Source: a virus
Taxonomy: Duplodnaviria > Caudoviricetes
Length of the DNA: 64,000 nucleotides
Strand: one strand, 5' to 3'
Virus record (IMG/VR): IMGVR_UViG_3300046539_000030
Location: 7,070 to 71,069 of that record
Shown: piece by piece, positions 4,588 to 47,183 of the stretch
How positions within the stretch are numbered: position 1 is the first letter of the stretch
How the letters are laid out: every line of letters begins with the position of its first letter
The notes under the pieces: model-generated
The model's database searches: none
Told to the model about the DNA's origin: nothing
What the model saw: only the letters and a program-made list of their open reading frames with translations
Program-made: the position numbers and the translations under genes

Positions 4588-4788
4588 ATGATGGAAGAAA
4601 TCCTTACAGGACGTCGGCGGCTACGCATACACCGACGCATATTGCTTGACAATCTGCTGGTTGTCGAGGTTGAAGTTAAAATCACTGTGCCTAGTGCTAC
4701 AGGCGATCGCAGCTACACCGCATGGCGCGATATGCGCCCCGAAGATTGCACAGTTTGGGTGGAGGTGGATTCATGTCTGACAAATTGA
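4588..4788 (+). CDS. hypothetical protein (paralog of 5473..5703)
   Basis: Shared LTGR.R / LV.EVEV / WRD pattern. Confidence 0.65.
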   Translation: MMEEILTGRRRLRIHRRILLDNLLVVEVEVKITVPSATGDRSYTAWRDMRPEDCTVWVEVDSCLTN

Positions 4789-6172: not shown

Positions 6173-8643
6173 TGGCAATTAATTATGATCGCATCCCAGA
6201 AGAATTGCGCTGGGATAGAAGTTGGTGCATCGCAGGTAAAGATGAAAACACAGGTCGGTATCGCGCACCATACGGATACGGGCGCAGAGGACTGTTTCAC
6301 GTTAGTCCGGTCAAACCGGAACAATGGTCAGATTTTGAAAGCATTGTAGAAATTGCTGCGGCTAATCCTCCATGCGGGATAGGTTACGTTTTAGCTGACA
6401 CAGACGCTTATTCCGTTATTGATCTGGATATTAAGGACGCAACTACTGAACCTGACCACACTAAATGGACATCTCAGGAGCAGATCGACCGCTACCATCG
6501 TATTATCACAGCGTTTGACACTTACACCGAGCGCAGCGCCAGCGGTCTGGGCTTCCATATCTGGGTGCGCGGCAAAATTGGTGACGGCCTTAAGCGCGAT
6601 GGCGTAGAAATCTATTCGCGTGAGCGGTTCATTGTCTGTACGGGTAACGTGTTCCTGGACAAACCTATTGAGGCGCGTCAAGACCTGCTAAATCTGCTTG
6701 CTGCGGAAATTAGCCAGGCTTCCCCTGCTTCACATGGTGCGTTTGAGCTCGTAGAGATCGAACCTACCGAATCTGACACCGCTATCTTCAGGCGTGCAGC
6801 AACCGCAGATAACGCGGAAAAGTTTATCGATCTATGTGACGGCAATTGGTCGGGCAAATATCCTTCGCAGTCAGAAGCTGACCTAGCATTGATGTCAATC
6901 TTTACTTTCTACAGCCCGTCGAACGAACAGTGCCGTCGCATGTTCCGCCTAACTGAGCTAGGTAAGCGGGCAAAAGCAACTAAGAACGATGTCGCTCTAA
7001 ACCGCATACTGACGGTTATTCGCGCAAGGCAAGCTAATGCAGAACTGGTCGACGCTGCTGCGGCTGCTGCTGCCAGTATGCTAGTTGCTAGCTTAAATGC
7101 ACCCCTAGCACCGCAGGCAAGCGCCCCCAGCACGCAAGCGCAAGCAAGCGCACCCTATACCATACCCGCACAAATAAACCCCCCAAAACCGCTGCAAACA
7201 AGCGTCCAATTCGAGCGCATCCCTCTGCCCGAGGAACTGGAAGGTTATGTACCGCCACCTCTGCCAGAAACAGAGACGCGTGAGATAATGCAGAAGACAG
7301 CTAGCATTGATTGGCCGCCAGGTATCTTGGGCCGGGTTGCGCGGTTCATTTACCACAACTCGCCGCGCCCTGTTCAAGAGGTGTCGATTGTCTCCGCGTT
7401 GGGCTTCGCTGCCGGAGTGTGTGGTAAAGCTTACTGCCTCCCGCAAAGTGGCTTGAACTTGTATGTCGTTTTGATTGCTAGGTCTGCAATCGGTAAAGAG
7501 GCAATGCATAGCGGTATATCCACAATTGTGAAACAAGTGGCTGACACTTGCTCACGTGTGACGCAGTTCATAGATTTTACGGACTATGCTTCGGGGCCAG
7601 CTCTGCTGAAAGCGGTCACTGCGAACCCAAGCTTCGTGAACGTATCTGGTGAGTGGGGGCGTAAGCTGCGCAGGTTATCAATGGAAGACGGACGTGACGG
7701 GCCTATGCAACAGTTGCGCACGGTGATGACTAATATGTACCAGAAATCCGGGCCGTCCTCGATTGTTGGTGGTCTTGGTTACAGCGATAAGGAAAAGAAC
7801 GTTGGGAGCGTGTCTGGCGCAGCGTACAGCATGATTGGCGAAAGTACGCCTGGCGGGTTTTATGATTCGCTTACCGACACCATGATGGAAGACGGGTTCC
7901 TTAGCCGCTTCACCATTATTGAATACACGGGCGAACGTCCAACAGCTAACCCAAACATTGTAGATACGCTTGATGAAGATTTAAAGGCGCATTTGGCAGC
8001 ACTGGCGGAAGCTGCTTTAAAGACGACATTAGGTTCCCCTGTATATGTCACGCAGAACCCCGAAGCTGAGGCGCTTCTGCAAGCTTTCGATCTGGAATGT
8101 GATACCAATATTCGTGCCGCAGGTGAAGATGAAAGCACCAGGCAGATGTGGAACCGTGCTCATTTAAAAGCGAGCCGCATCGCGGCACTGTTGGCTTCGT
8201 GTGACGACTTTGAAATACCAATCATTAACAAGGGGCATGCCGAGTGGGCTATTGCGGTTATCCGCAAGGACATTGCAATTATGCAACGGCGCATTTCTTC
8301 TGGTGATGTCGGTATTGGTGACAGCCCCCGCGAGAAGAAGATTCTTGCAACCCTCCAGTTATACTTGTCCAAGCCTGTACCTGAAAGCTATGGTGTTCCT
8401 GACAAGATGCGGGTAGATGGCATCGTGCCTCGTAAATATCTGCAAATCGTTACAAACAAAGCGACCGCATTCACCCAACACAAACTCGGTTCCAATGCTG
8501 CTCTGGATCTCACCATGAAGTCTCTGGCAGATAGCGGATATGTTTCAGAAGTGCCTAGAGATAAGATGGTTAGCGGCTACAGCTTCCATGGGAAGGCGTA
8601 TCGCATTATCAATCTCCCTCGCTTCCCTGGAGGTACAAAATAA
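6172..8643 (+). CDS. primase-polymerase (AEP) with C-terminal DUF3987-like ATPase/helicase region
   Basis: IPEEL..W, DLD, ERSASGLGFHIW, EIYSRERFIVCTG (PrimPol); SQSEADLAL helical domain; ARSAIGKE P-loop-like; DGFLSRF. Confidence 0.8.
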   Translation: MAINYDRIPEELRWDRSWCIAGKDENTGRYRAPYGYGRRGLFHVSPVKPEQWSDFESIVEIAAANPPCGIGYVLADTDAYSVIDLDIKDATTEPDHTKWTSQEQIDRYHRIITAFDTYTERSASGLGFHIWVRGKIGDGLKRDGVEIYSRERFIVCTGNVFLDKPIEARQDLLNLLAAEISQASPASHGAFELVEIEPTESDTAIFRRAATADNAEKFIDLCDGNWSGKYPSQSEADLALMSIFTFYSPSNEQCRRMFRLTELGKRAKATKNDVALNRILTVIRARQANAELVDAAAAAAASMLVASLNAPLAPQASAPSTQAQASAPYTIPAQINPPKPLQTSVQFERIPLPEELEGYVPPPLPETETREIMQKTASIDWPPGILGRVARFIYHNSPRPVQEVSIVSALGFAAGVCGKAYCLPQSGLNLYVVLIARSAIGKEAMHSGISTIVKQVADTCSRVTQFIDFTDYASGPALLKAVTANPSFVNVSGEWGRKLRRLSMEDGRDGPMQQLRTVMTNMYQKSGPSSIVGGLGYSDKEKNVGSVSGAAYSMIGESTPGGFYDSLTDTMMEDGFLSRFTIIEYTGERPTANPNIVDTLDEDLKAHLAALAEAALKTTLGSPVYVTQNPEAEALLQAFDLECDTNIRAAGEDESTRQMWNRAHLKASRIAALLASCDDFEIPIINKGHAEWAIAVIRKDIAIMQRRISSGDVGIGDSPREKKILATLQLYLSKPVPESYGVPDKMRVDGIVPRKYLQIVTNKATAFTQHKLGSNAALDLTMKSLADSGYVSEVPRDKMVSGYSFHGKAYRIINLPRFPGGTK
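7052..7205. other. GA/TC-free island B (inside primase CDS)
   Basis: 154 nt with no GA or TC; encodes the Ala/Pro/Gln inter-domain linker. Confidence 0.9.
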
Positions 8644-8709
8644 TCACATCTGCATAATTGTGTTGTTTGGGTAGTTTGTTTGCGGTATAATTTAATTGAA
8701 AGGTTAATT

Positions 8710-9261
8710 ATGACATTTGGACAAGATATTGATAAGTTCAACCGGATGTATAAGTTGCCGGTAGCCACACATCCAACCTTGCTGCAATTGGGGGTCCCTG
8801 CTTGGAACAGAATGGTTGCCTTTAGAAACATTTTGAGCGAGGAGCTGGATGAGCTCGACCCAATTTTAGGCAAGTTGTTAAGTATCCAGACGGGTGCGCT
8901 TTTCAACCCTGCCGATTTTAAACTGGAAGGTGAACCATATGTACCAACGACCGTGGACGTGCTCACGGACTTGGCAGACTTGCTTGGTGATATCCAGGTC
9001 TATTGCGCGAGTGAAATGGCGAAGTTCGGTCTGCCATTGGACGCGGTACTGACAATCATTATGCAGTCTAACTTGTCGAAAATGGGTGCAGATGGTAAGC
9101 CTATTTATGACGAGCGCGGCAAGTTGCAAAAGGGGCCGAATTACTGGAAGCCTGAGCCAAAGATTCGCGCAATGCTCACTGCCTTGCGTAGCGGTGAAGA
9201 AGCACCTGTACCAACCGGCCTGACGGGCATTTTCGACCCGCTGCCGTTTGTAGAAGAATGA
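8710..9261 (+). CDS. MazG-like/PRA-PH nucleotide pyrophosphohydrolase
   Basis: EELDEL, DLADLLGDI, SNLSKMGADGKPIYDERGKLQKGPNY. Confidence 0.8.
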   Translation: MTFGQDIDKFNRMYKLPVATHPTLLQLGVPAWNRMVAFRNILSEELDELDPILGKLLSIQTGALFNPADFKLEGEPYVPTTVDVLTDLADLLGDIQVYCASEMAKFGLPLDAVLTIIMQSNLSKMGADGKPIYDERGKLQKGPNYWKPEPKIRAMLTALRSGEEAPVPTGLTGIFDPLPFVEE

Positions 9262-9600
9262 CCCACGGCGTACCCCTTTCCGCCAACGGGTTGTAACTGA
9301 GTTTCTGGCATTGGTCTCAGTCTAAATAAAACCAGTGCCAACATTGGAGCGCCTGGATAACGCAGGTGTCGGCCTTAACCTTGCCCCCGACAGGGCATCC
9401 CTCGCCGTAGAGGGCCGGGTGTTCCAATGTTGGTAAGTAGGAGCAGAGTCTCGCGCTACAAGGACTGAGAAGGACGCTTAAGAGGAACTGAGTTAATCGC
9501 CATATGCTTTTGCTATGTCTCAAACGGAGTAACGAGAGGCGTTGATTACGCCAGAGGGTTACACCGGCTTGCCAACAATTTCTATTAACCAAGTCTGAAA
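9261..9600 (+). ncRNA. candidate large structured non-coding RNA
   Basis: ORF-free on +; nested helices with G-U pairs (9306-9315/9331-9340; 9339-9357/9415-9433; 9430-9438/9567-9575) and two pseudoknot complementarities. Confidence 0.55.
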
Positions 9601-9609
9601 GGGGTTTTC

Positions 9610-10023
9610 ATGACTGCTATCATTAAACCTGCGGTGACGCAGGAAGAACTGAACCGATGGTATATCGTTTCAGAACAGCTCACCAAGTTGAAAGACGAGG
9701 AACTCGAGTTGCGCAAGAAAATTTTCGGTGCCACTTTCACAGCACCGAAAGAAGGTGTCAATAAGAAAGACCTGACCGACGGCTGGATTATCAAGGGTGA
9801 CTACAAAATCAGTCGCACGATTGATGTTGCAACCCTGACCAACATGGCCAAAACCCTGGCGGAGCACAAACTCCCAATGGAAGATCTGATCCGCTACAAG
9901 CCTGAGCTCGTTCTTAGTGCATACCGCACCCTGAACGAAGAACAGCGCAAGGAATTTGACCAGATCTTGGTTATCAAGGAGGGTACACCGGGCCTGGAAA
10001 TCGTCAAACCAAAACGCAGTTGA
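9610..10023 (+). CDS. conserved phage hypothetical protein
   Basis: 137 aa ORF; N-terminal coiled coil; in the replication block. Confidence 0.75.
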   Translation: MTAIIKPAVTQEELNRWYIVSEQLTKLKDEELELRKKIFGATFTAPKEGVNKKDLTDGWIIKGDYKISRTIDVATLTNMAKTLAEHKLPMEDLIRYKPELVLSAYRTLNEEQRKEFDQILVIKEGTPGLEIVKPKRS

Positions 10024-10028
10024 ACAAT

Positions 10029-10042
10029 GGGGCTTCGGCCCC
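10029..10042 (+). terminator. UUCG-capped hairpin (terminator/stabiliser)
   Basis: GGGGC-TTCG-GCCCC just after a stop codon; no clear U-tract. Confidence 0.4.
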
Positions 10043-10069
10043 TGAACCTAGTTAATAAGAGACACACAA

Positions 10070-10393
10070 ATGAGCCTTGTAGATACAACCCTTCTAAACG
10101 ACCCTGACTATAACCCTGTCCCGCTGCTGGATGCTGCTTCTCGAGTTCTCGGTGTCCGCAACGACCGCCAGCTGGCCTTTGCAATCGGCGAAGCTCCCTC
10201 CCGCATTTCCCGCATCCGTCACAAACGCGCTCCAGTGACAGCGGAAATACTACTTCGTTTTCATGCCGCCACCGACTTGCCCATTCGCACGTTGCGTAAC
10301 CTGATGGGCGACACTAAAGCAAAATACTTCGGCGCAACATACTGGAATCCGACAAATGACCACACACCAAGCGCCACCTCCGCAGAAGCCTGA
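10070..10393 (+). CDS. XRE/Cro-like HTH protein
   Basis: LLDAASRVLGVRNDRQLAFAIGEAPSRISRIRHKRAPVTAEILLR. Confidence 0.7.
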   Translation: MSLVDTTLLNDPDYNPVPLLDAASRVLGVRNDRQLAFAIGEAPSRISRIRHKRAPVTAEILLRFHAATDLPIRTLRNLMGDTKAKYFGATYWNPTNDHTPSATSAEA

Positions 10394-13477: not shown

Positions 13478-13611
13478 GGACAGGTAGCTCAGTCGGTAGA
13501 GCGCCAGAGGTCTTGCAATAGCCTGAAGCCCGTTCTGACGGAGAGAAGCATTGCAAAAGATCACGCTGTATATGAAGAGGTCGCGGGTTCAAATCCCGCC
13601 CTGTCCACCCA
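13478..13611 (+). ncRNA. tRNA-like RNA 1 (anticodon arm replaced by a ~75 nt domain)
   Basis: Acceptor GGACAGG/CCTGTCC, D arm GCTC-AGTCGGTA-GAGC, AGGTC, T arm GCGGG-TTCAAAT-CCCGC, 3' ACCCA; no canonical anticodon arm. Confidence 0.75.
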
Positions 13612-19026: not shown

Positions 19027-19096
19027 GGAACCGTAGCTCAGCGGAAAGAGTAGCGAGGCATCGCGGACGCAGGTTCGAATCCTGTCGGTTCCACCA
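19027..19096 (+). ncRNA. tRNA-like RNA 2 (truncated anticodon arm, CCA end)
   Basis: GGAACCG/CGGTTCC, A73, CCA; D arm; T arm GCAGG-TTCGAAT-CCTGT; central arm only GCGA-GGCA-TCGC. Confidence 0.8.
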
Positions 19097-37629: not shown

Positions 37630-40600
37630 TTAGCTCAGGGTTGGTTTGATTGCGTCTTTCCTTGCGGCTTTGCTTATGCATTCGTCCAGTCCTTCAACAA
37701 CCGTGCTTGCGTTACGGTCGCTGGCGTCGTAGTTCGAAACAACCAAACGGGCGGTCTGGTCACGCTGTTCCTCTTTCAACTGCCTGACTTCTTCACGCAG
37801 TCCTCTAATTTCCTGGACAAGAGCTTCGTTAGCTCCCTTGCCGTAAGAGCTCAGATTTGTATTATACGCACTGTTCTCTTGAGAAGTCAATACGCGTTCA
37901 CCTTGATGCAACTCTGCACGGTAGCCGTCAAATGGTACATAAGACAATCCGCTTGCATGAACACCGTCAAGGTGAGCTACACCGCTGTCGCCAGGCAAGA
38001 CACCTCCGGTCATCTTCAAGAAGCTATAGTTTGAAATTGCTTCAGCAATCGTCTTAGTATTCTCTTCAACACCAAGCAAGTGATCGACAGTTGACTTCAA
38101 GTAGCTTAACGACTGTTCTGCCGTAGTCTCTTGGTTCGCAGCCATGTCCTTCTGCCGTGCAATGTCGGTCATTACCTGATTGTAGTCAGTATTGTAGCCT
38201 TGACCCGAAGCATTGAACTGCTTTGACAGCTCGAGGAACTGAGTTGCCTTGGCCTGATAATCCTGCATTGCATCTCGGTCACCGCTTTGCGCAAGCGCAG
38301 AGACTCTCATCATCTCCATCTTGGCAACAGTGTACTTGTCTGCCGTGTTAAGCGGGGACAGGTCGCCCATTGTCAGGTCGTCACGTAGCTGGGTCAGCGA
38401 ATCGCCAAACGCGCCGAATGCATCCCGCAGTTCACCAAGGCGGGTGGCTTCTTTGTCGTACGAATCTTCAAGGTCTGCTCGGGCCTTCGCAACTCTGTCT
38501 GCTGCTTCCTCAGCTGCCTTAGAGCCATCCTCAGTCACTTTGTACAGTTCGGCAAACGCGTCGGAAAGCATCATGACCTGCACACCAATCATCTGGCCCT
38601 TTTCGCCAGAGTGCATAAGTGCGTCCACGAGCTCTTTAAACCCCTCCATGCTGGTAGGCAGATCCATGCCAAGTCGGGCAAACTGCTCGCCGAGTATTTG
38701 AGCCTTCTGCACCTTCTGCTCAGCTTCGGTGAACATGTTTTCCATGTAAGTTGACAGCGCACTGTTCAAACCATCAATGCTACCAGCACCACGAAGCGCG
38801 CCAAAGGTCACTTCGCGACCCAGACCGGCAGCGTCCATTTTCATACGGGCGTCAACAAGACCTTGATATGAATCAACAATCTCGTCAATGGTGCCGCTCA
38901 TCTTGTCCATGACATCGAACAACGACGTTCCAAACTCGCGCCATTTCAATGTAGCCTTAACAATCTCAGCGCCAACGTCACCTTGCTTGTCGTCAACGTA
39001 GAGGAGCGGCAAGGCTTTAACGCCCAACGTTTCCAGTGCAAACTCTGCAGATTGGATTCCGCTAGCCACACGCATGAAGGTTTCGTAATAACCTTCACCC
39101 ATGCGCTGGAATTCGTCGAGCTGATTGCCCATCAAACCTTTTGCCAGGCTGTCTCCAATACGCGAGAACCAAGCTTGCAAGGTTTCTTCGACCTCCTTGC
39201 CGTCCATGTCTTTCAAGCTCATGAAGCCTACGGTCGTCCACTCACGGAACCAACGATCAACCTCTTTAGGGTCAAAGTGGAAGCTGGCGCTAGCATCGGC
39301 CAAGCTGGTGATCATGTTATCAATAACGTCACCAATAGCTTTGCTGACCGCTGGGTCAACCGCTCCGTATTGCGTGCTCACGGATGTCTTTTTAACCAGA
39401 CCGAACCAACTGCTGGACGTGCGCTGCACATCTGCATATTGCGAAACGCCTTGACCGTTTGCAAGGTCGCCTAGCTTGGCGTTCACGTACAAACCTGCAT
39501 CGGTGATGCTTTGAGTTGTCTTGCCCCACAAGTTTCGCAGAGCACCAATTAAACCGCCACCCTTGTTGATTTGCCCTTCAAAGATTCCCATGTTCTGGCC
39601 TGTGGTGATGCCCGCATTGCGCACCAACACGACCGCCAAGCTACTGATAGAACGGTTGATATCACGCAGGGCGTCCAGCATGTCTGTGTTCTGCCCGAGG
39701 CCTTCCTTAGTGTCTTTCTCAACTTGCTCCAAAGCTTTCAGCAGCGACTCGGACTTAGCTTCGCTGTCACCCATCACCGTGCCTGTGCCCTGGGCTTTCT
39801 GGCGTGCTTCCATGCGAGCTTTACCCATGCCCTGCGAGCCGCTATTGAACCCGCCTCCCACGGCAAAACCCAGCGCCGCCACCGCCGCAGCCATTGCTGC
39901 CATGCGGAAGAAGGCGCTATACGGGTCTCCCTGTGCTTGAGTCAAAACAGCCTTGACCGCCAACTGGCCCATCTCGATTAAGTTCATTGCTAACTGCGCA
40001 GCGTGGAAGGTTTTAGCAATACCGTCCATCATTCTGTAACCAGTGCTGTTCTCCTGGAAGAAGCCTTTAGCTGCGTTTGCCATTGCACCGTAGCCTGCGA
40101 GGTTATTCTGCAGGCTCATTCGGTCAAGCTTATCACGATCTTCAAGGAACTTCACTTGGTCTTTATTGCCGGTGGCCCTTGCAACATCATTGTTCTTATA
40201 CTGCGCAGCAAGCTCGTCCTGGCGATCCATAAAGGCGCCCATAGCATTCGAAAGATCCACAAGTGCGCCCATCGCACCTTTAAAGGCGCCACGCAACGCA
40301 TCACCGAACTTACGAGCCTTAGTTGGATCAAGGAACTTATCCAAGTCTTTCTTAGCCTTATCGCCGACGTTGAAAGCTTCAATACCTGCCAATGCCGCAG
40401 CGTTCTTTTTCTTGGCAGCAATCAAAGCTTCCAGCTTTTCAGTTTCAGCCGTGCATAGACCAATGCTGTTCATTTGCGCAAGTTGCTCTTCCATGCGAGC
40501 AATAGTCATTTCTTCAGTCACGGACTTGCCTTCTCGCAATTGCGAAAGTTTAAGTTCGTTTGTGGCAGCTTCTTTCTCTGCGCTTTCAATTGCCTTAGTG

Positions 40601-46282: not shown

Positions 46283-46677
46283 GCTTGTAAGACCAACATA
46301 TAAAAGAGCGCGACACCGCCAGGTGCGGTCACTTGAACGTTCACAATGGAATAGTTCACCCCGTCCAGCAGTACGTGATCCATCAATGTTGGAGCAGCGC
46401 CACTAGCGTCAAGATAAAGCCACTTCTCCTTGTTGGCAATCTGAGAACCCTTTTGCAACGTCTGCCCGAAGTGTCTTGCAATCTGCGACCCCGGCTGATC
46501 TGCCGTCAAAGCGTTGCGAGTGGTATCCGTATAGGATACACCTCCGGATGCTGATCCGGTGGCCGGGTTGTAATCACCTGCGCCCTGAGAATACCGGCGC
46601 AAGGTAACTTCTTGCCCGTAGCTCTTCAGCATCCGAATAACGGTTGCATTCAGCCTCGTATAAAGCGCCGAGCTCAT
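46279..46677 (-). CDS. head-closure/head-tail joining protein
   Basis: YGQEVTLRR..YNPATG; position. Confidence 0.7.
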   Translation of the reverse strand: MSSALYTRLNATVIRMLKSYGQEVTLRRYSQGAGDYNPATGSASGGVSYTDTTRNALTADQPGSQIARHFGQTLQKGSQIANKEKWLYLDASGAAPTLMDHVLLDGVNYSIVNVQVTAPGGVALFYMLVLQA

Positions 46678-47183
46678 GTCCGCACCAGCTTCACGGTTGC
46701 TCCACCGCTAGAGCGAAGGTAGCTTGCCAGGATCAGGGTTACATATGGATAGCGAGCTTGCTGAGGCGATAGCGGATCATATTTAATCTTGATGGGCCCT
46801 ACTGCCTCTTCTAGAACCCCACGAGTCTGATCGTCCGACAATGGGCCTGAAGCGGCACGGAAAGCTAGCTCTGCGCATGCATTCCCAACGACGCGAGGAA
46901 TGTTGGTGTCTGAAACCAAGACAGGTATCCGGGCTTCGAGCCAGACATTGTAGCGGGGCCAGTCCAGGGCTTGCGTGCCAAGCTTCTTGTCACCCTTCCA
47001 ACGCTCGCCGTAAAAGCCGACCATGAATTCGGTGGCACGGCGCAAGCAATTTTCGCGCTCGGTTACGTTCATGGTTGACCAGAGAGTATTACCGCGTCTG
47101 TCGTGATAGGTGTCAGCATCAGTTACCGAGATGTAACTTTCTGCATTTGCCAGTCCAGTACCGTCTTCAACAATTAGTGTCAT
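46674..47183 (-). CDS. head-tail connector (adaptor)
   Basis: MTLIVEDGTGLANAESYISV, QALDWPR. Confidence 0.8.
   Translation of the reverse strand: MTLIVEDGTGLANAESYISVTDADTYHDRRGNTLWSTMNVTERENCLRRATEFMVGFYGERWKGDKKLGTQALDWPRYNVWLEARIPVLVSDTNIPRVVGNACAELAFRAASGPLSDDQTRGVLEEAVGPIKIKYDPLSPQQARYPYVTLILASYLRSSGGATVKLVRT

Follow-up and report, generated by a model that had tools for sequence, protein, structure and literature searches.

Structured RNAs of about 300 nt which show strong covariation and have no assigned function are rare, and they have often led to new biochemistry. The put RNA of phage HK022 is about 70 nt long and consists of two stem-loops; its hallmark is read-through of terminators in cis, which depends on the zinc-binding domain of the RNA polymerase beta-prime subunit. 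STnc100 and PasD are reported to be related prophage sRNAs which associate with Hfq and for which no function has been established (bioRxiv 10.64898/2026.05.13.724894), and YrlA RNA is described as being encoded next to Ro60 (PMC4201824). The element described here lies between two protein genes of a phage and is, on comparative grounds, a real, conserved and structured phage RNA.

The locus and its gene setting

The window, as the whole analysed stretch of 64,000 nt is called here, is part of a 71-kb IMG/VR virus record. Its plus strand carries a primase-helicase gene, a MazG-like gene, a gap of 348 nt (9262-9609) and a DUF7173 gene, followed by ligase and Sak4-type genes; the primase-helicase gene is located 600 nt upstream of the gap. 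The features of the locus are the following:

8710-9261, plus strand: gene for a MazG-like nucleotide pyrophosphohydrolase (phrog_671, 2.8e-19), context outside the RNA
9261-9291, plus strand: hairpin H0, just 3' of the MazG stop codon (read from the sequence)
9296-9340, plus strand: region of hairpin P1', a helix of nine Watson-Crick pairs and one G.U (9306-9315/9331-9340) capped by an A-rich loop of 15 nt
9336-9356, plus strand: 5' arm of helix P2 with the conserved base motif of the family (arm tables, model R2)
9357-9414, plus strand: apical insert of P2, with hairpin 9367-9372/9387-9392 or 9382-9386/9393-9397, plus hairpin 9399-9403/9410-9414
9415-9435, plus strand: 3' arm of P2 (arm tables)
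9430-9438, plus strand: 5' strand of the long-range helix P3, which pairs with 9567-9575 and has 4 nt in common with the foot of P2
9439-9566, plus strand: 3' domain enclosed by P3, diverged counterpart of the family's module X
9567-9591, plus strand: 3' strand of P3 (9567-9575) and conserved single-stranded tail ending UAUUAACCA
9597-9612, plus strand: Shine-Dalgarno (SD) sequence and ATG of the DUF7173 gene (read from the sequence)
9610-10023, plus strand: DUF7173 gene (PF23791, 1e-33)

The nearest cellular homologs of the MazG-like protein belong to Undibacterium, other Oxalobacteraceae or Burkholderiaceae, and are named pyrophosphatase in Burkholderiaceae and Undibacterium. The host of the phage is therefore likely a betaproteobacterium.

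No credible open reading frame was found in the gap. Long frames exist on the minus strand only, and a protein-coding gap was rejected because these are unlike proteins and have no PHROG match, and because the indels relative to the closest relative (L004, see below) are not codon-like. Neither a sigma-70-like promoter nor an intrinsic terminator was found on the plus strand of the gap, nor a plus-strand terminator in a search of 8600-10200. Directly 3' of the DUF7173 stop codon a GGGGC-TTCG-GCCCC tetraloop hairpin without a U tract is located (10029-10042), which may be a transcript-stabilising or processing hairpin.

Searches with Rfam 15 gave nothing at the gathering threshold or at E<=10 for 9150-9700. 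The sole match of the window at gathering level is a tRNA at 19027-19093 (49.8 bits), and there was none to GOLLD, ROOL, preQ1 or other riboswitches; preQ1 had come into question through the que/DpdA-type genes of the phage. A sequence-only reading of this DNA had seen no likeness to tmRNA, RNase P or tRNA in the gap, which agrees with the lack of Rfam 15 and ARAGORN matches. Unusual tRNA-like genes are indicated at 19027-19093 and 13478-13611, at a distance of 4-10 kb from the RNA. Relatives of the RNA often adjoin tRNA genes, unlike the copy in the window.

Fold and parts of the RNA

The minimum free energy (MFE) of the plus strand of the gap is -131.6 kcal/mol (z -4.15), and none of 100 shuffles was as good; the minus strand reaches a z of only -1.79. 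The sequence-only reading had proposed a new plus-strand ncRNA with several pseudoknots, and all the motifs it listed are at the stated positions. These include H0, the 10-bp helix of P1', a 19-bp helix at 9338-9356/9415-9433 with exactly three G.U pairs as its only departures, the long-range helix P3 and the short complementary stretches TGTCGG (9367)/CCGACA (9387), CCCTC (9399)/GAGGG (9410) and GGCGT (9538)/ACGCC (9548). The loop sequence CTCAGT at 9316 is indeed complementary to ACTGAG at 9296, 9464 and 9487, and three ACTGAG copies arose in just 1 of 20,000 shuffles of the gap. One element did not stand: TGCCC (9382) and GGGCA (9393) are complementary, but the H-type pseudoknot proposed for them (9382-9386/9393-9397) was rejected, being sterically doubtful because there are no linker bases between its strands, and having no comparative support.

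P1' occupies the place of the canonical 5-bp hairpin P1 of the family, to which the covariance model R2 aligns it with mismatches. ACTGAG at 9296-9301 can pair with the P1' loop (9316-9321) to form a pseudoknot or an alternative hairpin, and the same loop is complementary to 9464-9469, a pairing used in the MFE fold. The 19 bp form the core of P2; a 21-bp version (9336-9356/9415-9435) contains four G.U pairs, and all non-Watson-Crick pairs of this helix in the window are G.U. At stem positions 13 and 15 (G.U) and 18 (U.G) the wobble pair of the window is in each case found again in other modules. Antisense or guide-like matches of the P2 insert were sought within the genome of the phage itself, and none was significant.

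The 3' domain contains the ACTGAG copies at 9464 and 9487 as well as the hairpins 9538-9542/9548-9552 and 9550-9554/9564-9568. It shares a motif at 9479-9488 with KP591P1 and CF74b, and the segment 9439-9566 is mostly absent from L004. The tail motif is common to L004 and phage PhiPLPE, and the 3' box of P3 is situated about 20 nt upstream of the DUF7173 ribosome-binding site.

Homologs between the MazG and DUF7173 genes

Tracing the products of the flanking genes through public assemblies yielded phages with the same gene order. Four other phage contigs hold a homologous element in the same gap, with lengths from 257 to about 700 nt. L004 is the closest relative (DUF7173 64 % and MazG 67 % identical) and has a gap of 257 nt; despite this divergence of the flanking proteins, its first ~50 nt after H0, comprising the P1' stretch, are 100 % identical to the window, and the last ~30 nt are shared. 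In H0 the stem is altered and the loop kept. The long helix of L004 has another sequence and is again fully paired; from stem position 9 upwards most pairs are unlike those of the window and many are changed on both sides. L011 has a gap of about 700 nt with two long helices, L051/L052 one of 541 nt, and compensatory changes in P2 and P3 occur across L004, L011 and L051/L052.

Comparative support is uneven for the parts of the fold. The 19-bp and the long-range helix covary strongly, the P3-equivalent in L004, L011, L051, KP591P1, CF74b and phage P1. For the 10-bp helix and the neighbouring ACTGAG/CTCAGT pairing the one close relative shows 100 % identity, so that both are conserved and uninformative, and the structures inside the 19-bp helix belong to a hypervariable insert without comparative support.

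In L005/6, L007, L010, L053 and the contigs of protein P0008 the gap is only 0-96 nt long and the element is absent. L005/6 and L007 are next nearest to the window by DUF7173 identity after L004, yet do not have it. Since it is missing from L005/6, L007, L010 and L053, the element is an optional and dispensable insertion. The readable short gaps hold a promoter-like site and a small hairpin: in L007 (1645-1701), L053 (2449-2500) and L010 (3505-3600) a TAAAAT or TATACT site stands just before the DUF7173 gene; next comes a small perfect hairpin, which directly adjoins the ribosome-binding site. This suggests that the DUF7173 gene heads a transcription unit there. The first part of the L011 gap contains, 5' of the two RNA modules, an open reading frame of 49 amino acids (4596-4745), which is preceded by a good ribosome-binding site and whose N-terminus is hydrophobic; it may encode a small membrane protein.

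ARAGORN found no tRNA in the homologous gaps. The ~350-nt gaps of L002 and L003 were discarded as relatives, as they have another position (after DUF7173) and do not align to the gap of the window; the best match of model R2 to L002 (E 0.41) lies elsewhere in that locus. BLAST of the gap against cultured phages gave zero matches, and an exact 18-mer from the conserved 5' block was not found in IMG/VR. A pattern search for the P1' pseudoknot gave none in genomes and, in metagenomes, one match inside a coding region (L008) that was rejected as due to chance.

A modular family of phage RNAs

An IMG/VR scan for the two feet of P2 returned 40 loci, mostly chance matches in coding sequences; only three (L063, L068, L087) are true members, and these belong to other phage types. 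Searching for the small hairpin together with the box brought in L094, L100 and L101, and cultured phages were reached by BLAST. The cultured Iodobacter phage PhiPLPE, which carries the RNA on the minus strand (NC_011142, about 46660-46950; fold z -4.55), gives the clearest view of the canonical unit; here hairpin P1, one A, P2, module X, a short tail and a terminator follow each other. Hairpin P1 consists of 5 bp with the loop GAAAGA directly 5' of P2 and is found in L063, L068, L087, L100, L101 and PhiPLPE; window and L004 carry the 10-bp hairpin with 15-nt loop instead.

P2 has a length of about 13-20 bp. Its foot, ACCAACAUU / AAUGUUGGU, is conserved, and the upper stem is complementary and free in sequence. 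Foot and stem of this kind are present in the window at 9336-9356/9415-9435. The P2 insert varies from 22 to 92 nt, and the inserts of 10 modules share neither sequence nor fold; some members have a tRNA-like T arm in it, which the insert of the window does not contain. Module X consists of P3 enclosing two hairpins with complementary loops and is followed by the tail and often by an intrinsic terminator. In P3 the bases just 3' of P2 pair with a CCAAC-type box after the small hairpin, and the window has the same arrangement (9430-9438/9567-9575, last hairpin 9550-9568). A unit measures ~290-350 nt; P2 modules can occur in tandem, three in L068 and two in L011.

The contexts of the family members are diverse. 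In L087 a TTGACA-17-CATTAT promoter upstream and an intrinsic terminator downstream enclose the RNA, which is antisense within a baseplate gene block, and L063 carries it in an N4-like phage. In L101 a tRNA-Gly follows 12 nt later and then a terminator, whereas the Klebsiella phage KP591P1 shows the order promoter, RNA and three tRNAs. The RNA of KP591P1 is located at about 40146-40560 of OP172809, on the minus strand. The RNA of CF74b lies upstream of a pseudo-tRNA and a holin gene, that of a Stx2 prophage in the pL leader downstream of the repressor gene and that of phage P1 in the ban operon. A terminator separates the RNA from the next gene in PhiPLPE and L100. Own promoters and terminators of the homologous RNA fit a discrete RNA in these phages. 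The hairpin-plus-box signature has a single locus in each of four whole phage genomes; a general promoter or terminator signal, a dispersed repeat and a MITE were rejected on this basis. The P1-P2 model found nothing in three named Oxalobacteraceae genomes or in 151 sampled Burkholderiales genomes, in a search whose first-pass filter may lose weak matches.

Two members are accompanied by tRNA-like sequences. The minus strand of L068 (7048-7158; ~2700-2810 of the reverse complement) carries a tRNA-like module, which combines an acceptor-like helix of 14 bp with a canonical T arm and precedes a CCAACA box; Rfam reports weak tRNA-Sec and mascRNA matches at 7062-7140 of this locus. On the minus strand of L063 (1987-2079) ARAGORN indicates an odd tRNA-like gene of 93 nt whose 'anticodon' has two bases; the P2 helix, on the same strand, is located about 215 nt upstream of it.

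Covariation and model statistics

P2 was tested on 10 modules from 7 phages at upper-stem positions 9-18. With their own arms 96 of 97 positions are paired; arms swapped between modules pair at 62 %, and none of 20,000 permutations reached the observed value. The non-Watson-Crick pairs of P2 in the family are 17 G.U and one A.C, so that only one strand can fold. This excess, together with the z values of both strands, bears out the assignment to the plus strand which the G-U pattern had suggested to the sequence-only reading. Its main proposal, a new structured phage ncRNA on this strand, is supported by the homologs, the covariation of the two main helices and the absence from Rfam.

Model R2 comprises P1 plus P2, and neither the window nor L004 was used to build it. 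It matches 9315-9442 on the plus strand with 37.3 bits (E 7e-8), the minus strand giving 12.9 bits (E 0.2). For module X, 11 sequences were fitted to model R1, an alignment that somewhat favours the structure: 98.3 % of the cells are paired, and 12 of 22 pairs, one of them in the kissing loop, are changed on both sides, a number not reached in 500 shuffles. When the partners are slid by 1-3 columns, a control that retains relatedness, pairing drops to 24-48 %. The canonical loops are GGCUGA and AGAUCAGCA, which form a 5-bp loop-loop pairing; neither is kept in the window. R1 with filters off finds its best match in 9200-9700 at 9423-9584 on the plus strand, in the expected register, with just 3.4 bits (E 0.14). 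The 3' domain of the window is, by this comparison, diverged or partly replaced; it retains P3, a canonical-like last hairpin (9550-9568), the motif 9479-9488 and the tail. Because this domain has no significant module X match, the RNA of the window is classed from its sequence as a diverged member of a modular phage RNA family absent from Rfam.

Distribution of module X

Module X is present in 184 cultured-phage records, among them phage P1, Stx-converting and other lambdoid phages as well as Klebsiella, Pseudomonas and Iodobacter phages. The RNA region of Stx prophages which contains it matches 1605 of 5426 complete E. coli genomes (~30 %), and none of 15 sampled places carries an annotation. 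The family is missing from Rfam 15 and unannotated in GenBank/RefSeq; for its 3' module this includes phage P1 and about 30 % of complete E. coli genomes.

In phage P1 two copies are located on the plus strand (AF234172 69813-69924 and 70074-70207; L114:2014-2125 and L114:2275-2408). Opposite or beside them lie the minus-strand ORFs 'plp' (putative lipoprotein) and 'upl' (unknown), which may be mis-annotations of the RNA region; the family would in this way correct the annotation of ORFs that lie opposite conserved RNA modules. Upstream of module X in KP591P1 a separate 5' domain is found (L112:1229-1374), which is unannotated and occurs in ~870 cultured-phage records. Carriers are P1, P7, Felix O1-like, ViI-like and Erwinia phages, the P1 copy being located just after the 'dicF-like region'. 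This domain, too, appears to be an RNA module which is widespread in phages and unannotated.

Rfam gave nothing for the relatives of the RNA, except for the second module X copy of phage P1. This degenerate copy matches STnc100 with 33.4 bits (E 2e-4, gathering threshold 47 bits) and model R1 with 27 bits. On this match, the 3' module of the family is distantly related to the sRNA STnc100. The idea of a new ncRNA is supported, the family itself being uncatalogued, with the qualifications that some of the inner pseudoknots are unsupported and that a distant catalogued relative exists in STnc100/PasD.

Proposed role and alternatives

The best guess is a processed, trans-acting RNA, and to this role, as to the whole reading of the element as a diverged family member that is co-transcribed, processed and acts in trans, about an even chance is given. 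Established are the strand-specific, conserved fold, in which P1' stacks on the 19-21 bp of P2 and P3 closes the 3' domain, the membership in a mobile RNA family and the expression signals of stand-alone relatives. Since no promoter or terminator is detectable in the gap, the RNA would be read through from the MazG gene within the replication-gene transcript, and a discrete RNA would require processing; host RNases would trim the transcript to a stable folded RNA. This could bind a conserved host or phage factor, or base-pair via its exposed loops and tail. Action in trans is proposed because the relatives are stand-alone RNA genes or lie beside tRNA genes, and because the 3' module is distantly related to the Hfq-associated STnc100 and PasD; the link of the window itself to these sRNAs is indirect, its 3' domain scoring 3.4 bits against module X and having no STnc100 match. 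A secondary local effect on DUF7173 translation is possible. On the other hand, in the siphophage group the element always stands right before a gene, which would suit a cis role as well.

A wider version is tentative and we consider it rather doubtful: all P1-P2-P3/module X RNAs could form one ancient mobile class of beta- and gammaproteobacterial phages acting on a universal host machine. They might bind RNA polymerase for protein-free antitermination, or serve as tRNA-like decoy or scaffold against tRNA-directed defences, and the hypervariable P2 insert would tune specificity.

The main rival to a trans-acting RNA, in itself unlikely, is a cis-acting translational leader of DUF7173. The H0 loop, or else the extreme 5' end, would pair with the SD region and P3 would hold the upstream box, so that ribosome access is set by folding, processing or a bound protein, as in the leader of T4 gene 32. 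The H0 loop (9272-9280) is complementary to the SD region, and a 9-nt complement to 9597-9605 arises in just 33 of 5000 shuffled leaders (p ~0.007). Loop and SD are both retained in L004 while the stem of H0 changes, the MFE fold pairs the 5' end with the SD region, a local hairpin covers SD and AUG in L051, and in five contigs the element directly precedes the DUF7173 gene. However, L011 and L051 differ in their SD sequences and have no anti-SD loop to match them, and the loop-SD pairing shows no covariation. The family also occurs without a downstream gene (L087) or before tRNAs (L101, KP591P1), and in PhiPLPE and L100 the terminator stands between the RNA and the next gene.

Three further explanations are less likely than this cis role. 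Processive antitermination in cis, similar to HK022 put, in which a modified RNA polymerase reads through terminators, is distinctly improbable. The order expected for it, with the RNA just past an early promoter and followed by an intrinsic terminator and same-strand genes, is found among the relatives (PhiPLPE, L100, the pL leader of the Stx2 prophage, the ban operon of phage P1), and the sequence is highly conserved across distant hosts. But the window has neither a near-upstream promoter nor a plus-strand terminator (8600-10200), L087 is a closed unit facing a convergent gene, up to three modules stand in tandem, and the link to STnc100/PasD favours trans-acting sRNAs.

Very improbable is an element of RNA processing or stability, with P2 as RNase III site or the structured block as 5' stabiliser, by which a polycistronic transcript would be cut and the half-life of the downstream message set, as at the early RNase III sites of T7. 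The uninterrupted 19-21 bp of P2 are sufficiently long for RNase III, the position is intercistronic, and L068 and L101 carry tandem modules between other RNAs; the conserved P1 loop, the kissing-loop module, the conserved G.U positions and the stand-alone genes would all be left unexplained.

A role of the sequence as DNA, for instance as replication origin or as an inverted repeat bound by a protein, can practically be set aside: the nearby primase-helicase gene and the box TGCCAACA, present twice in the gap and 11 times in the window (3.9 expected), would suit it, but the G.U excess means that one strand only folds, the upper stem covaries with free sequence, promoters and terminators accompany the element in relatives, where its setting is a baseplate, N4-like or tRNA one, and close relatives have no such element.

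The family occurs in the culturable phages PhiPLPE, KP591P1 and P1, so that its function is directly testable. With the window a betaproteobacterial-phage branch joins the family; here the long P2 and P3 are kept and other parts are replaced, which reveals the conserved core parts.

Comparison with known RNAs

A literature search on the conserved loop sequences found no paper. The T4 gene 32 leader is likewise a structured, pseudoknot-bearing leader before a replication/recombination gene; in contrast, the present family occurs without DUF7173, and there is no sign that the DUF7173 protein binds RNA. HK022 put is a folded phage RNA in early transcripts, and relatives of the RNA of the window show the order promoter, RNA, terminator and genes, but stand-alone and tandem copies do not fit put.

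YrlA (RF02553) resembles the family in a long stem capped by a tRNA-like domain, the T arm abutting the 3' arm of P2 in L068 module 2 and PhiPLPE. It differs in that the family has no GGUCCGA-like Ro site and no YrlA match on the RNA, and the insert of the window has no T arm; a Ro60/TROVE gene is absent from six phage records. GOLLD and ROOL are, similarly, large multi-helix pseudoknotted phage RNAs, often beside tRNA genes and without assigned function. In comparison with these, the family has no Rfam match to them, is smaller (~290-350 nt per unit) and modular, and follows another consensus.

STnc100 (RF02076) has no counterpart of the P1-P2 part and no match in the window even at E<=10, nor in PhiPLPE (E<=0.1), L087 or KP591P1 (E<=1). 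STnc100 and PasD are described as Hfq-dependent base-pairing sRNAs of enterobacteria (Salmonella, E. coli), whereas the host of the window phage is probably a betaproteobacterium. What they have in common with the family is that they are phage- or prophage-borne ncRNAs with a mosaic, horizontally spread distribution, and STnc100 and module X overlap at one place in phage P1.
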